Part shown: one piece after another, positions 435 through 62,672 of the stretch | Position numbering within the stretch: position 1 is the stretch's first letter | Layout of the letters: each line of letters begins with the position of its first letter | NCBI GenBank assembly: GCA_958009085.1 | Contig: OY253670.1 | Coordinates: 1,240,001 to 1,304,000, forward strand | Length of the DNA stretch: 64,000 nt | Direction of reading: 5' to 3' | DNA from: Protoeuglena noctilucae | Lineage: Eukaryota | Notes under the pieces: generated by a model | Told to the model about the DNA's origin: nothing | The model's input: only the letters and a program-made list of their open reading frames with translations | Database searches by the model: none | Translations under genes and position numbers: made by a program

Positions 435-3400
435 ATGGCGCCCGAGGTTGACACGACCAGGCTCGCGCCGGAGCCCAGAGCCGGGTCCGCGCTCCCGGCC
501 GAGCCTCCCAAGGGAGCGGAGGAATGCAACGTGTGCGTGGCTGTCCACGTGCGGCCTCTCATCCACGAGGAGATTATTCAGGAATGCAAGGAGACGATAT
601 CGGTCACCCCGAACTCCCCTCAGGTGCGAATAATTGCGCCCGCTTTCGGACCCCTGGACCCCCACGCATTTTGAAAGCCACGGCTCGACACCCCGCCCAT
701 CGCTTTCCAAGCCCGATCCTGTCGCTCGAGTGTACGGTTTCCTGTTCATCGCCCCGCTTCGTCCCCTTGGCGCCCCACCCGGCGCTGAGGGGCGGCCCAG
801 GTCAGGACGTTGTCGTGGGCCGGACCCGCCGCGCCCATCCGCGCTTCTCGTCCCCCCGCAGGTCACGCTGTCGTCACTTCATCAGTTCACCTTTGACTAC
901 GTGTACGGCGGGGACCACGGCCGGCCACCTTCGGAGCTCTACGGGCAATGCGTGAAGCCGCTCGTCGAGGGACTCTTCCGCGGCTATAACGCCACTGTGC
1001 TGGCCTACGGGTACGGGGCGGTGCATAAAAAATGATGTGCTTGCATGTGCTGTACTGCAAAGGAAGCCGCGTTGTCCTCCACCCTGCCAAAGCAACCCTG
1101 GGATGCCACCCTGCCCGTCTTTCGCCCTGGGCGCAGCCAGACGGGATCCGGAAAGACTTACACGATGGGCAGCGCCTTCACTCCTGGCGGCCCCAGGTGC
1201 GGCGTCATCCCCGAGGCCATGACGACGCTCTTTGAGATTTGCCGGTACGTCCCTCCAGCAACAAGACGCAGCAACAGACACACCCCTTACCGACCCGCTC
1301 GCTCACGCTCACGTGCGTAAACCATGCGCCCTGGCCCCTGCACACCCGCATGCACCCATCGCCCCTGACCCTCGCCCTTAGCGCCGCACCTACCCCCGCC
1401 ACTCCTTACCCCCTCTGCCCCACCTTTGCAGCCGCGAGTCGGACATGTATGACTTTTCCATCAGCGCATCGTTCGTGGAGATCTATCGGGAGGACATCCG
1501 GGACCTGCTGGCCCCCGCGGCCCCCCCCGTGAGCGTGCGGGAGCTGCCCGGGGGTGGCGTGTGCCTGGCTGGGGCCACCGAGCAGCCCGTGGGCAGCATG
1601 GAGGACATGGCGCAGCTCATCGAACGGGGCACGCTGTGCCGCGCCACGTCGGCGACGGGCATGAACAAACGCTCCTCGCGGTCCCACGCCATCTTCACCA
1701 TCTCGCTGGAGAAGCGCCGCAGGGACACAAGCGGGCCGTCACCCTCGGGGCCCGCCGCGTCCGACGACAGCGGTGGCGCGGGCCTGGGCCACGCGGTCGA
1801 GTCCCCCCGGGATGCAACCGCGGCGGAGGACGAGGTGGGAGAGGCCGACTACGTGTGCGCCAAGGTGAGCTTGCGGGGGGCGAGGGAAGAGGGATGCGGG
1901 ACTTGGCTCACGGCTCCTGGGTCCTCGCTCTGTTGTTTCCCACTTCACCTTAGCACCGCTACCCGCCGCGTCACCCCATCGCCCACCCCGTCACCCCACC
2001 ACCCACCCCGCCACCCCACCACCCTCCCCTTCGCCCCACCACCCGCCCCTGCTCGTCTGCCCAGATGCACCTGGTGGACCTGGCGGGTTCCGAGCGCGCC
2101 AAGCGCACCAAGGCGGAGGGCGTGCGCCTGAAGGAGGGCATCAAGATCAACCAGGGCCTCTTCGCCCTGGGCAAGGTCATCAGCGCGCTGTGCGACGACA
2201 CCCGGCGGGGCGCGCACGTTCCCTACCGCGAGTCGCGGCTCACGCGGCTCCTCCAGGACAGCCTCGGGGGCAACTCCCGCACCGTCATGCTCGCATGCGT
2301 GTCCCCCGCTGACGTCAACTTCGAGGAGACCCTCAGCACCCTCAAGTACGCCGACCGGGCGCGCATGATCCGCAACAAGCCCACCGTCAACCGCGACCCC
2401 ATGGCAGCCGAGGTGTCCTCCCTCAGGCGAGACGGGGACGCAGGGCGCGGCGGGCCGGGCCGTGGCGTGGCTGGGGATGCTCCCACGGTGGGTGCGCTGC
2501 GGCTGGGCTGTTGTCGAAAAGGTGCTGTGACGCTTTGCCATCTCGCAGGCAGCAGCTGGCGCTGGCCAAGGCGGAGCTGGCGGCCGCGCGCGCCGCGCTG
2601 TGCGGGGCGGCCCCCGCCAGCGTGGCGTCCCTGCGGGCGGGCGGTGGCGACGCGGCGTGGGAGGCGGCCGTGACGGAACTCGAGGCCAGGGCCCAGCGGG
2701 CGGAGGCGGAGGTGAGGGGCGGCGGACATGGATATAGTCACAGAGACTGGCGGTGCGCATGCCTGTCAGGGGAGCGGCCACCTGCCTACCCCTACAGCCT
2801 TGCCACCCCCGCGACCCGACCCTTCCGTCGCGCCCCACCGCAGGTCTCTCGCCTGCAGGCGGAGCTGCGCACGGCCACGTCGCGGCTGGTGGAGGCGCAG
2901 GCGCAGCGGGACGCCTGGGAGGGTCGCTGCCGGGACTTGCTAGACAAGGCGCGGGAGCGCGGGTGGGACGCCAGGGCGGACCTGCAGCTCGCGGGGGAGG
3001 AGCCCAGCAAGCACGGGGCGGAGGTGTACCTCGGCCGCATCGCCGAGCTCGAGGGGGAGTGCGCCAGGCTCAAGGTGGGGCCAGGGCACGGGCATGGGGG
3101 AGCGCCGGTGCAGATGGGGGGGTGCCGGGACCGCGGGGGGGGTGCCGGGACCGCGTGGGGGGTACCTGTGGCTGACACTCGCTGCACAGGAGCCGTGCAA
3201 GCGCGGTGGTCCTGCCGAGCAATGTCACCGCCCGTCACGTGCGCCCCGCCCCGCCCCGCCACCTCCCATCTCTAACCGCAAGCTTCCTCCACCCCCGCCC
3301 CCCCAGAACGAGGCCGCCGTCACCGAGGCCTTCCTGTCGGCCCGCCGCATGTCCATCGACCTGGCCCGCGTGCCCGAGGAGCCTCTGCTCGAGGCGGCCC

Positions 3401-58536: not shown

Positions 58537-59171
58537 ATGAATCGCCCGCTGGCCGCCTTTGCGGGTCGCACCACTCCGGTCCTTTCCCCCCGCGGCTGCC
58601 ATCTTTGCCGCGTGCGCCTGACGCCATGGGACGATGAACCCAGTGGGTTCCAACGCGAGGAGCAAAGGGTCCGTCACACGCTGCGCTTCTGGAACTGCAA
58701 CCTCCGAAGGCAGGGGCCAGCAATCGACCGTCTCCCTCTCTTCGCTCCGCGTCTGCAGGAGCCGGTGCTTGTCGCCACGCAGAAGGGTGTGCCGGACGTT
58801 CGTCGGAGGGAGCAGTCGCAGCAGCGTCAGCGGCCCCCTTGCCAGCAGTGCGCCGGGACGGGCCGGGTCGTGTGCTCGCGATGCGATGGATACCAGCGCG
58901 TCAACTACATCGGGGTGGCGATGCTGCCGGAGGGCGTGTGGCCGCAGTGGTGCCCGCGATGCTTTGCCAGGTACCCTGCTGCTGCGTGTCCTGCCCCTGA
59001 GACTGCTTTCTCCCGCACTGGGTGCCAGTCATCAGAGAACGCGCTGGCCATCGCAGGGGGACGGAATGGTGCGCGGCGTGTCAAGGGACGGGGGAGCACA
59101 GGGACCCTATAGGGTTCTTGACGGCGGAGGAGCCCCCGCCCCGAGAGAAGCCCGCCAACCGGCCCTGGTGA
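58537..59171 (+). CDS. DnaJ-type cysteine-rich zinc-finger protein, probably plastid-targeted
   Basis: CQQCAGTG, CSRCDGYQ, MLPEGVWPQWCPRC, and after the intron WCAACQGTGEHRDPIGF. Confidence 0.78.
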
Positions 59172-59375
59172 CGGGACGGCGCTGGCTCTGGGTCCGGCAC
59201 CCAGGGCCCGCCCAGACCCCCAGAACGGCTCTAGCGCCAGGCTGAATGGCACTGGACATCGTTTGACAAAGGGTGTTGCTGGCGAGGGCAACCCCAGTTT
59301 GCTGTTTCTTCGGCGTCGACGCCCCTTCCCTTGCGCCACTCACGTCTTCAAGTTCTCCTGACTATCAAGTGCTCT

Positions 59376-59961
59376 GCGCCGACCGCCGGTGCCGCGAATC
59401 GCTCGCGGCTGAGAATATACGGCCTGAACCTGACCGGTGCGTCCCCCGAGAGACTGCGCCGGCGCGTGTTTGACAGTCGACCGCGGCGCCGACTCCCATC
59501 GGGCGCCGCAGGCCCGGCGCGGGGAGCCGTCACCCGGCCACACTCAACCGACTTTTTGCGCGCTCGTCGGCACTCTTTAGGCTTGCGAGTCCCATCTGCG
59601 CGTTCTTGATTGCGCGATTCGAGCCCTACTTCGCCCGTGGGCCCGCATTACGGTCCGTCGAGTTGGTTGGGCGCAGCCGTCACCCTTCGAACGGCCTCGC
59701 CCCGCCTCGCCCCGCCGCCCCTGCGGCACAGCCAGCTCTCTGTGTGCTTTTGGTGATCCCAAGAATGTGTATTTGGCCGCGTGGGCCCCTTCCGGCGAAC
59801 CTGGGGCCATGAGTCGGTTGTGTGTTAGCCTGCGGTCGCCGGGACCCCGCGACGGGCAAGTCGCGTTCCCGTCACTTTCGAGGCGTGCACTGCGGGGGGT
59901 GTGACGCCCGGCTCCCCTCGGATGGCTCGCAGCGTTAATACGCGCGTAGGGAGGTCGGTGC
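59376..59961 (+). ncRNA. TPP riboswitch aptamer interrupted by a 496-nt intron (59437-59932) in the 5' leader of the SSS transporter
   Basis: 5' half: P1 GCGCCGACC, P2 GCCG/CGGC, P3 GCCGCGA/UCGCGGC, UGAGAA, GAACCUGA. 3' half: CGU-UAAU-ACGCG, CGUAGGGA, GGUCGGUGC (pairs with P1). The insert begins GTGCGT and ends CTCGCAG. Confidence 0.88.
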
Positions 59962-60159
59962 AAGGGCTCCAGGCGTCCCAGACACCCAACAGGAACCGCC
60001 GTCTCGAGCGTGATACGTCACAAAGTGAGGCTATCTCCGGGGACCGGAATGCGGCTTCAGGACGCCCGCACCGCCGTGCTGGTGGACGACGCTGCGGGGA
60101 TGCTCTCATGGCGTTGAGCGCGGATCTGGAGCCCCCTCCGCCCACCGCGTGGCTGCAGG

Positions 60160-62672
60160 ATGGCGTACCTTACTCCCAACGAAGGCATGGCCGCGGCCTA
60201 CGCGACCCTGGCCTTCTTCTTCGTCGTGGCCACGGGGGTCGTGTCCCTGCCCCAGTTCCGCCACTTTTTGAGCTCCTTCGACCTCCTCCTGGTGACCGTC
60301 GCAGCGGCTCTGCGTGAAAACACATCCTCGCGCGCATCCGTCGCGGCGTCATCCCTCCCGCCCGTCGCGCCGCGCGCAGACGGCCCGCAAGTCGATGGGT
60401 TGGATCCGGCTGGGCTTCTCCTTCTTCGCCGGCGCCCTGGGGGCGTGGACGGTGTACAGCGTGCCTCAGGTCGGCGCCGACGTGGGCCCCTGGGGCATCA
60501 TTATGTACGCCGTCGCCCTCTTCCTCCCCTACGTGATCCGTGAGTGCTGTGCAGGGTTGCAAAGCAACAAGCCAGCACGCGGCCACAAGACGAGCATCCG
60601 GCCTACTGCGTCCCGCCTCCGCAGTGCCGTGGCTGGCCCCCCGCGTGCTCAAGCAGGCGCCGGAGGGCTTCACGGCTCTCGACTACGCCAAGAAGCGTTA
60701 CGGCACCGTCATGTACTACTTCGGTCTCCTCGTGTCCCTTTTTTACCTGTTCATCTACATGGTGGCAGAGGTGAGCGACCGTGAGGGTGCCGCGGGCTGC
60801 TGCGCGGCGTGGTGTGGTGGCCACGGCTGACATCGATGGACCCCTTGGCTTGGCCCTGCAGTACACGTCCGCAGGTGGGGCCATCTCCGCGCTCACTAAC
60901 TACACGCTGACGGACTGGCACGTGACCATCGGCGTGGCGCTCGTGTCGGCCACCTACACCGCCTACGGTGGCATGGCCACCTCCATCCTCACTGACATGG
61001 TGCAGGGCTGCGTCATGTTCAGCCTCGGTGAGTCGGCGGCGCTGGCTTGCTCGTCATGTTCAGCCTCGGTGAGTCGGCGGCGCTGGCTTGCTCGCACACC
61101 GCAGCGGCGACATGGGCGACTGCGGCGCGTGGCTGTCCACTCCTCTCCGCCCGACACCGCCCCGCCTCTCTGTCGCGCAGTGGTCATCGGCTGCGCGGCC
61201 GGCTTCCACTTCTCCAAGACGTCCGCGTCGGCCATCCACCACGCGGCGCGGTGGTCGAGCGTGGGCTTCAGCCAGTGCAGCCCCCTCATCATCGGCGTCG
61301 TGGCCTCTGGCCTATTCGACATGACCATGTGGCAGCGCGCCTACGCCGCCAAGAGCTCCCGCGAGCTGTGGCAGGCCAGCCTCCTCGGCGCCCTCCTCAT
61401 CATGCCCGTCATGATCCTCTTCGGCATCTCGGGCATCATCGGCGCCGTCATGAACCCCGCCGACGCCGCCACGGTGAGCGCCGCCGAGGAGCGGCGTGTG
61501 GTGGCGGCTGTGTACCCCGAGCGGCCCGTGAAGATCTCGTCAAGGATAAAATGGAACACCCACCGACCATTCGGATGACGATGGACCTTGATAGGGCAGA
61601 ACCTGAGGCCAGGGGCACGCCACCATCCCAGGGCCTGACGTCATCCGGTGCGAGCTGTCAAACGTGGCGCGCCTTTGTCCCTACCCCCCGCAGGCCTCGT
61701 ACCTGACCTTCTTCGACCTGGTGGCCCCGCTGGGCAAGGGCTGGCAGGGCATCCTGATCGTCATGGTGGTGTCGCTGGTGTGCTCGACCGCCGACTCGAT
61801 CCAGAACGCCATGACGACCATGATCTCGCTCGAGCTGGAGAAGATCCCGTGGGAGCCCCTCCGCAAGCATCCCCTCTACGTCGCCCGCTTCACCGCGCTC
61901 CTCATCCAGGGCCCCGCCCTGGCTCTTGCCCTCAAGGACATGAACGTCCTCACCCTCTTCCTCATCGCCGACCTCGTCGCCGCCTGCATCGCCATCCCCG
62001 TCTTCGCCGGGCTCTGGGGTTTCATGACGCCGGTGAGCGCCCCGCAGGCCGTCTCCAGCAAGCAGTGTGCTTTTCATGGGGTAACGAAGTGCGAACGCTG
62101 TCCAAGGCTTTTGCCTGGTATTCACAACACTCACCCGCCACCCTCGTCGTGTCTTGCCCCCAGACGGGCGCCATGTGGGGCTGCATCGCCGGCTTTGCGT
62201 CGGTCGTGGTCGAGGGCTGGGCCATCCGCGGCAACTTCGCCCAGGGCTGGAGCCAGTTCATCCTCCCCGCGGGCTCGTACGCCAACGAGACGGTCGTGGC
62301 CTTCGTCATCGCCGTGGTCTTCTCGGGCTTCGTCGGGTTCGCCGTCTCGGCCGCCGAGCGCGTCTACACCCACGTCGTGCGCACGCGCCGCTACGTCGAG
62401 ATGGTCGCGCGCCACCACAAGGTGCGCCGCGGATGCGGCCCCGCGTGCCGGCGGACACTGCGCACTGCGCGCCGTCTGCGCCCTCGCCATGGCCGGGCAA
62501 TGGTGCATGCGCGTGTCACACATCCAATGCCGCGGGTCATGGTTTTTCTCTGCAGGTGGACCTGGATGCGATCGAGGAGGAGTTCGCGGGCCTCGTGGAC
62601 TACCGTAACAAGAGCATCTTCGACAACAACAAGGACGGCACGAGCGCCACCGACGACGGGGACCAGGTCTGA
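60160..62672 (+). CDS. Sodium:solute symporter (SSS) family transporter, probably for thiamine or a thiamine precursor
   Basis: Multi-TM exons: FSFFAGALGAW, DYAKKRYG, LFIYMVAEYT, YTAYGGMATSILTDMVQG, FDMTMWQRAYAAKS, CSTADSIQNA, LFLIADLVAA. Substrate inferred from the upstream TPP aptamer. Confidence 0.88.
61011..61094 (+). repeat. Perfect 41-bp tandem duplication covering an exon end and 5' splice site
   Basis: cgtcatgttcagcctcggtgagtcggcggcgctggcttgct occurs at 61011 and 61052. Confidence 0.95.

Follow-up and report, generated by a model that had tools for sequence, protein, structure and literature searches.

A TPP aptamer interrupted by a leader intron of a sodium:solute symporter gene and complete only in spliced RNA

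Intron-resident TPP riboswitches were reportedly described in 2007 by Croft, Wachter and Cheah for Chlamydomonas THI4 and THIC, the plant THIC 3'UTR and fungal NMT1 and THI4. To our knowledge, every eukaryotic riboswitch that has been explained experimentally is intact in the pre-mRNA, where it steers splicing or 3' processing. In many algae, TPP riboswitches are located on the symporter genes SSSP, SSSF and SSSQ, expression of the SSS-family genes of Micromonas increases by a factor of more than 10 when thiamine is withheld, and surface ocean water is described as poor in vitamin B1 and its precursors (McRose et al., 2014, PMC4260697). In diatoms, SSSP is reported to be needed for thiamine uptake (Llavero-Pasquina, 2022).

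A riboswitch interrupted by introns has been noted for SSSQ of Guillardia theta, where it is split by "one or two introns" and "cannot operate before splicing occurs" (McRose et al., 2014, ISME J, PMC4260697). An initial annotation of the DNA described here had proposed an aptamer of this kind and left the search for earlier cases to the literature, in which the G. theta gene is such a precedent; a search of full-text literature, with subscription journals mostly outside it, returned no other intron-split riboswitch. Within the window, by which the whole stretch of 64 kb that was analysed is meant, a TPP aptamer that is complete only in spliced RNA is encoded in two halves, at 59376-59436 and at 59933-59961.

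Aptamer halves and the junction between them

Read from 59376, exon 1 carries the P1 5' strand, P2, the P3 hairpin, CTGAGA, the P2 return strand and AACCTGACCG, and ends at the donor CCG/GTGCGT, with the intron starting at 59437. After the acceptor CTCGCAG/CGT, the exon sequence resumes at 59933: a short hairpin is followed by GTAGGGA and then by nine nucleotides that pair with 59376-59384, which gives a P1 of eight Watson-Crick pairs and one G-U. The P2/P3 arm, which carries CUGAGA, lies in the first exon, as do the strands of P1 and P4 on the 5' side; their partner strands, the pyrophosphate-arm motif GCGUAGGGA and most of P5 are in the second, and the P5 5' strand is composed of two bases of exon 1 and three bases of exon 2 once the 496-nt intron is gone. 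With the removal of this intron, the ligand pocket is complete. All aptamer and splice-site elements listed in the initial annotation were found at the coordinates given there, including the branch-like GTGAC at 59901-59905, which is located 28-32 nt upstream of the acceptor. An overview of the features is given in Table 1.

Table 1. Features of the split aptamer, its host gene and the related loci (X1, X4 and X5 are RNA runs; L001 and L002 are related loci numbered in their own coordinates).
Feature	Positions	Strand	Basis or remark
5'UTR exon 1, minimum extent	59358-59436	+	RNA contigs begin about 59357-59366
Aptamer 5' half	59376-59436	+	Direct reading and RF00059 model 1-68, 25.1 bits
P1 5' strand	59376-59384	+	Aptamer 5' half
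P2	59385-59388/59420-59423	+	Aptamer 5' half
P3, 7-bp hairpin	59391-59397/59403-59409	+	Aptamer 5' half
CTGAGA	59409-59414	+	Aptamer 5' half, pyrimidine-sensing arm
P4 5' strand	59429-59431	+	Aptamer 5' half
P5 5' strand, first two bases	59435-59436	+	Exon 1
Intron 1, 496 nt, GT..AG	59437-59932	+	Inside P5 5' strand; joint in X1, X4, X5
5'UTR exon 2, 92 nt	59933-60024	+	RNA contigs, gene model
Aptamer 3' half	59933-59961	+	Direct reading and RF00059 model 69-105, 14.8 bits
P5 remainder	59933-59935 with 59940-59942; 59943-59944 with exon 1 bases 59436-59435	+	Pair list
P4 3' strand	59949-59951	+	Aptamer 3' half
P1 3' strand	59953-59961	+	Aptamer 3' half
Intron 2, 134 nt, GT..AG	60025-60158	+	Ends 1 nt before start codon; joint in X1, X4, X5
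CDS, 536-aa sodium:solute symporter	60160-62672	+	RNA joints; PF00474
Coding intron, GT..AG	60292-60379	+	RNA joints X1, X4
Coding intron, GT..AG	60540-60624	+	RNA joints X1, X4
Coding intron, GT..AG	60771-60861	+	RNA joints X1, X4
Coding intron, GT..AG	61028-61180	+	RNA joints X1, X4
Coding intron, GT..AG	61474-61693	+	RNA joints X1, X4
Coding intron, GT..AG	62033-62163	+	RNA joints X1, X4
Coding intron, GT..AG	62422-62555	+	RNA joints X1, X4
L001 putative intron, 421 nt, GC..AG	2414-2834		Pyrimidine tract and CAG; inferred from sequence
L002 putative intron, 675 nt, GT..AG	1919-2593		Predicted from sequence
P2 across three sequences			4/4 pairs kept in all; compensatory changes in 2 pairs
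P4 across three sequences			4/4 pairs kept, invariant
P5 across three sequences			4/5 pairs kept; one full compensatory change
P1 across three sequences			Window and L001 covary at 4/5 pairs; L002 broken at 3/5

At the gathering score of 54.3 bits, RF00059 has no match in the 64-kb genomic window, and in E-value mode the genomic interval 59300-60050 yields only 17.3 bits (E 1.1) by using intron bases as surrogate P4/P5, so that the initial expectation of a genomic covariance search blind to this aptamer is confirmed. When the stretches were cut at the splice sites and Infernal was used in truncated mode, 59375-59436 (from 59340-59436, cut at the donor) aligned to model positions 1-68 (25.1 bits, E 0.0017, 3'-truncated) and 59933-59969 (from 59933-60024, cut at the acceptor) to positions 69-105 (14.8 bits, E 0.53, 5'-truncated). 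The two half-matches are contiguous in the model, with neither gap nor overlap, and meet at the splice junction. Since these E-values refer to stretches of less than 100 nt and neither half is significant alone at the scale of the whole window, it is the combination of the two that carries the case. Together they total 39.9 bits as opposed to the gathering score of 54.3 bits, a sum that gives no credit for the junction-spanning pairs of P1, P4 and P5. In the pocket, CUGAGA follows P3 and ACCUGA...GCGUAGGGA belongs to the P4/P5 arm; both conserved motifs are recognisable in the window and in the related loci L001 and L002, by direct reading and in the model alignments. A separate hairpin at the donor (59434-59441/59455-59462) has about -16 kcal/mol, with 7 of its 8 pairs at probabilities of 0.95-1.0 and the terminal G-U at 0.06; this element, 59434-59462, is the surrogate P5 in the 17.3-bit genomic match.

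The RNA data were Logan contigs of three marine metatranscriptome runs from two studies, X1 and X4 of study P1 and X5 of study P2. The joint 59436/59933 is present in contigs of all three runs, preceded by 79, 77 and 70 letters in X1, X4 and X5, respectively (the X5 piece is 59366-59435), and the junction predicted in the initial annotation is thus supported by RNA from both studies. No contig of the genomic run X10 contains it, and a 28.7-kb contig of this run is colinear over 59100-61040 without any of the joints; because X10 may be the window's own source sample, it serves only as a control. Assembled contigs cannot show transcript ends, strand, minor isoforms or levels, and the lack of RNA contigs over 59481-59861 in X1, X4 and X5 is uninformative on intron retention, since contigs drop rare forms.

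Joined by script, the 90-nt RNA adopts the canonical P1-P5 shape at its minimum free energy (MFE) of -45.9 kcal/mol, and flanks of 10-20 nt leave this shape unchanged. Its stability exceeds that of 300 dinucleotide shuffles (z = -3.53), and the true acceptor gives the lowest energy among the 30 AG sites tried. The three-way junction, in which P1 closes the P2/P3 and P4/P5 arms, is the MFE shape of the joined RNA in the window and in L001; the alifold consensus of the three joined sequences likewise comprises P1-P5, whereas L002 folded by itself has a different MFE structure. Shuffling does not make the joined L002 RNA less stable (z +0.61), and the acceptor ranks 2nd of 13 by MFE in L001 and is outside the 5 lowest of 39 in L002. 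The ranking is therefore decisive for the window only. MFE controls discriminate poorly in GC-rich sequence; the window has a GC content of about 66-70%. Taken together, the RNA junction, the contiguous RF00059 halves, the fold of the joined RNA and the relatives with the same break described below bear out the original proposal that the sensor is completed by splicing.

With regard to the intron itself, an origin as a repeat or introner-like element was considered and rejected, as the only matches in the 64-kb window are of 29 nt or less and the three introns are dissimilar.

The host gene and its relatives

The transporter gene comprises 10 exons and 9 GT..AG introns, from the start codon at 60160 to a stop codon ending at 62672. 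Its translation is identical to database protein P0002 and matches positions 3-406 of the 406 positions of PF00474 (E 9.2e-18), the family of SSSP, SSSF and SSSQ, so that the aptamer is attached to a thiamine-related gene family and the SSS-transporter context recognised at the outset holds. The protein also matches TIGR00813 (sss superfamily), for which NCBIfam gives the superfamily level only, and a PDB search returned a weak match to SGLT1 only. Database relatives are few: two metagenomic proteins with 50% and 49% identity are followed by a chytrid fungal protein with 33%, the nearest one with a name, and chytrids also make up the nearest Atlas cluster. Prokaryotic (ThiV-like) relatives were not found when prokaryote genomes were scanned with a pattern, a method of limited sensitivity. 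On this basis, the protein tentatively leans to the fungus-containing SSSQ group and not to the bacteria-containing SSSP group. It is probably a transporter of thiamine or a thiamine precursor.

The RNA contigs of the gene begin 10-19 nt upstream of P1. After splicing, the leader of this gene is at least 172 nt long and that of L001 would be 162 nt long, with no upstream ATG (uATG) in either, and the aptamer ends about 64 nt upstream of the start codon. A separate RNA contig (59100-59357 in X1, 59100-59335 in X4) ends just upstream of the transporter contig and has a lower depth, 5 vs 28 in X1 and 11.8 vs 23.3 in X4; it may represent the 3'UTR of an upstream plus-strand gene or a longer transporter leader. 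A plus-strand ORF upstream, 58537-59112 (191 aa), contains a Cys-rich CxxCxGxG-like stretch, which suggests a gene for a small zinc-finger protein. Within the gene, one X5 RNA contig has a backward joint from 61976 to 61380 with 10 extra letters and is probably an assembly chimera. The X10 assembly breaks at 60928-61428. Here, a second contig of depth 94 agrees with the window over 60928-60961 and 61409-61428 only, these two matches being separated by 378 other letters, and short high-depth X10 fragments are found at 61024-61094. A repeat, a paralogue or a divergent allele around the intron 61028-61180 would account for this break.

One metagenome scan gave three related loci, of which L002 and L003 are the same sequence from two samples; the protein of L001 is 49% identical to the host protein and that of L002/L003 55%. 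Rfam in E-value mode (E <= 1) gave no match on the whole loci L001-L003, and the split aptamers of L001 and L002 were located with short motifs. In L001, exon 1 ends at 2413 (…CCTGACCG) and the exon resumes at 2835 with the P5 hairpin and GTAGGGA; in L002, exon 1 ends at 1918 and is followed by GTAAGA, the interval ends with GCAG (2593), and the 3' half is near-identical in sequence to that of the window. The L001 5' half aligns to RF00059 1-68 (21.2 bits, E 0.015) and its 3' half to 69-105 (10.0 bits, E 7.9); for L002, the 5' half aligns to 1-68 (22.3 bits, E 0.0077). The break is thus at model position 68/69 in the window and in L001, the L002 5' half likewise stops at 68, and when the joined RNAs of all three loci are aligned, their junctions occupy one common column. 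Both intervals would be spliced as in the window, judging from their boundaries, which in L001 are of the GC..AG type. The comparison with orthologues, which the initial annotation had left to be made, therefore yields two independent related loci with the aptamer broken at the same model position.

The helices of the aptamer are kept to different degrees (Table 1), and the covariation, which rests on three sequences, is supportive and not statistical. The three introns are mutually unalignable, as is the other leader sequence. Since the intron position is common to relatives at about 50% protein identity, it is likely to be old. The L001 CDS is a single ORF of 569 aa, identical to P0011 and without coding introns, and the gene has either lost such introns or never had them, yet it keeps the interval that splits the aptamer. 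During 3'-biased, reverse-transcript-mediated intron loss, the 5'-most introns tend to survive. The L001 interval could be kept by selection, but it could equally be a leftover of such a loss. Two further observations concern the surroundings of the L001 aptamer. A second CTGAGA at 2427 (2424-2432) lies 14 nt inside the putative intron, preceded by GCGG as at the real P3 end, and may be a decoy or due to chance. On the minus strand, 1885-2490 contains a long (SL)n low-complexity ORF run, which corresponds to a CT/GA-type simple repeat upstream of the aptamer.

Sensing before or after splicing

The reading we favour, and consider rather likely, is that of a genuine TPP aptamer split across two 5'UTR exons of the sodium:solute symporter gene, with sensing on the spliced RNA. 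In this case, TPP would be sensed by the spliced RNA only, and the bound aptamer would be placed near the 5' end of a leader free of uATGs, about 64 nt before the start codon. Plentiful TPP would then lead to a bound aptamer and to a lower transporter output, most likely because ribosome loading or scanning is hindered or the fate of the mRNA is altered; a choice of splice sites would be a less likely route than either of these. Engineered aptamers in eukaryotic leaders hinder ribosome loading or scanning when stabilised by their ligand. We know of no natural eukaryotic riboswitch for which an action on translation has been demonstrated.

A tentative extension, which we regard as possible without expecting it to hold, makes the intron a working part of the switch. 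The locus would then be an example of a eukaryotic riboswitch in nature whose action follows splicing and is directed at the initiation of translation or the fate of the mRNA. As the intron splits P5, nuclear pre-mRNA could not sense TPP under this extension and spliced mRNA could. In each of the three sequences, the exon junction follows the CUGAGA of the pocket at a distance of 21-28 nt (59409-59414 in the window, 2388-2393 in L001 and 1891-1896 in L002), and the exon-junction complex is normally deposited at about -24 from the junction. With CUGAGA in this zone, occupancy by the complex and ligand binding could exclude each other; this spacing follows geometrically from the placement of the intron in P5 and may nevertheless be functionally relevant. 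If the intron has this role, covariance scans of genomes only would systematically undercount eukaryotic riboswitches.

The initial annotation had offered as an alternative that the aptamer folds in the pre-mRNA with the intron looped out and masks both splice sites. In a fuller form of this alternative, bound TPP would mask or juxtapose the donor at 59437 and the acceptor at 59932, and retention or removal of intron 1 would be the switch. Retention would add three uATGs in the window and four in L001, an 8-bp hairpin covers the donor, and fungal SSS/urea-type riboswitches steer splicing by pairing over about 500 nt (Mukherjee, 2018, PMC5882874). In the unspliced ensemble (59358-60024), the 9-bp cross-intron P1 reaches a probability of about 0.30, but P2 has only 0.02 and the cross-intron P4/P5 pairs have 0.003 or less. 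Pairing of the intron ends that would loop intron 1 out is above shuffles in none of the three loci (z -0.13, -0.03 and +1.83), and the donor hairpin has to be rejected as a conserved element, as shuffled sequences do comparably well (z -0.97) and neither L001 nor L002 has it. The calculations of pair probabilities and intron-end complementarity thus gave this alternative no support and we consider it unlikely, although the folding evidence against it is weak because energy models ignore ligand and tertiary contacts. The unspliced ensemble, the unremarkable intron ends and the unconserved donor hairpin together are the reasons why sensing on the spliced mRNA is favoured.

The aptamer might instead be a conserved relic, or bind TPP without regulating the transporter gene under normal conditions. 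Diatom THIC and SSSP aptamers are conserved although their transcripts are thiamine-unresponsive, and diatom aptamers failed in a Chlamydomonas test platform, according to Llavero-Pasquina (2022). On the other hand, SSSP and SSSF of Micromonas are reported to respond to thiamine deprivation (McRose et al., 2014, PMC4260697), and in our three loci, with their unalignable introns and leaders, the motifs that contact the ligand are preserved, as are the helices, in which compensatory changes occur. A relic, or a binder without regulation, is unlikely but conceivable, given the unresponsive diatom aptamers.

It is also conceivable that the joined aptamer controls the removal of intron 2 (60025-60158), whose retention would place uATGs before the CDS. 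This intron is real in RNA, and in both the window and L002 its acceptor directly adjoins the ATG. Its retention would add three uATGs, and the reading frame begun by one of these runs across the main start; leader introns and uORFs are likewise used by TPP switches known from fungi and algae (Mukherjee, 2018, PMC5882874). However, L001 has only 88 uninterrupted nt from the aptamer half to the ATG, without a plausible intron, and because there is no room for one, the mechanism would not be common to all loci. No complementarity between the aptamer and the intron 2 donor was seen by eye. Control through intron 2 is therefore very unlikely.

A chance resemblance of two unrelated GC-rich stretches is effectively refuted, for although each half is weak against the whole window and the MFE controls in L001 and L002 are poor, the two halves meet in model coordinates exactly where RNA confirms the junction, the same contiguity is found in L001 with the L002 5' half behaving likewise, and the gene context (PF00474) fits.

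Comparison with known systems

The TPP riboswitches of Chlamydomonas THI4 and THIC, plant THIC and fungal NMT1 and THI4 resemble the aptamer of the window in that they belong to class RF00059, are eukaryotic and are located beside introns. In contrast to it, they are said to be intact in the pre-mRNA and to steer alternative splicing or 3' processing, and none of them is known to depend on splicing to be assembled. Where the aptamer comes into existence with splicing, it must act at a later stage. Counts of riboswitches made from eukaryotic genomes instead of transcripts will miss this split class.

The "type II" riboswitch of Neurospora crassa NCU01977 is similar in that a TPP aptamer is linked to a long intron of a gene for an SSS-superfamily transporter (Mukherjee, 2018, PMC5882874). 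The intron is of comparable size, with 650-900 nt in the fungal type II genes as opposed to 421-675 nt here, and in both cases elements about 500 nt apart must meet (PMC5882874). However, as described for the fungal genes, the whole aptamer is located in the intron, is spliced out, and pairs over a long distance with an element between alternative donors (PMC5882874), whereas the halves described here lie in the exons on either side of the intron and are retained in the mature mRNA. Rfam in E-value mode found no intact aptamer inside the intron 59437-59932, and since switches of the NCU01977 type are whole inside a long intron, the feature that defines them is missing here.

The single-exon SSSP and SSSF genes of Ostreococcus and Micromonas share with the window an exonic leader aptamer on a gene for a putative transporter of thiamine or a precursor (McRose et al., 2014, PMC4260697). 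As these genes offer no obvious choice of splice sites, an undocumented, possibly translational, mode has been suspected for them (PMC4260697). Their aptamers are contiguous in the genome, whereas that of the window needs splicing to exist. An aptamer acting after splicing bears on the leader riboswitches of marine algal transporters without a splice choice, a question left open by McRose et al. (2014). The transporter gene described here is expressed in marine metatranscriptomes, which is of ecological interest in view of the scarcity of vitamin B1 in surface ocean water.

The closest likeness is to SSSQ of G. theta, in which a TPP aptamer in the 5'UTR of a multi-exon PF00474 gene is also split by introns and joined in the mRNA, although the organism is another one and the window has the high GC content given above. 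The comparison of the host gene with SSSQ is made by family and by its chytrid relatives, hints which fit the fungus-containing SSSQ group. In the text of McRose et al. (2014) on the G. theta gene, a conservation of the split across species is not mentioned, whereas here the split is found in three loci. The aptamer of the window is therefore not unprecedented but a well-supported further case of a rare and barely studied kind noted once before (McRose et al., 2014), to which it adds splicing verified by RNA in environmental transcriptomes and one break position in three divergent loci.
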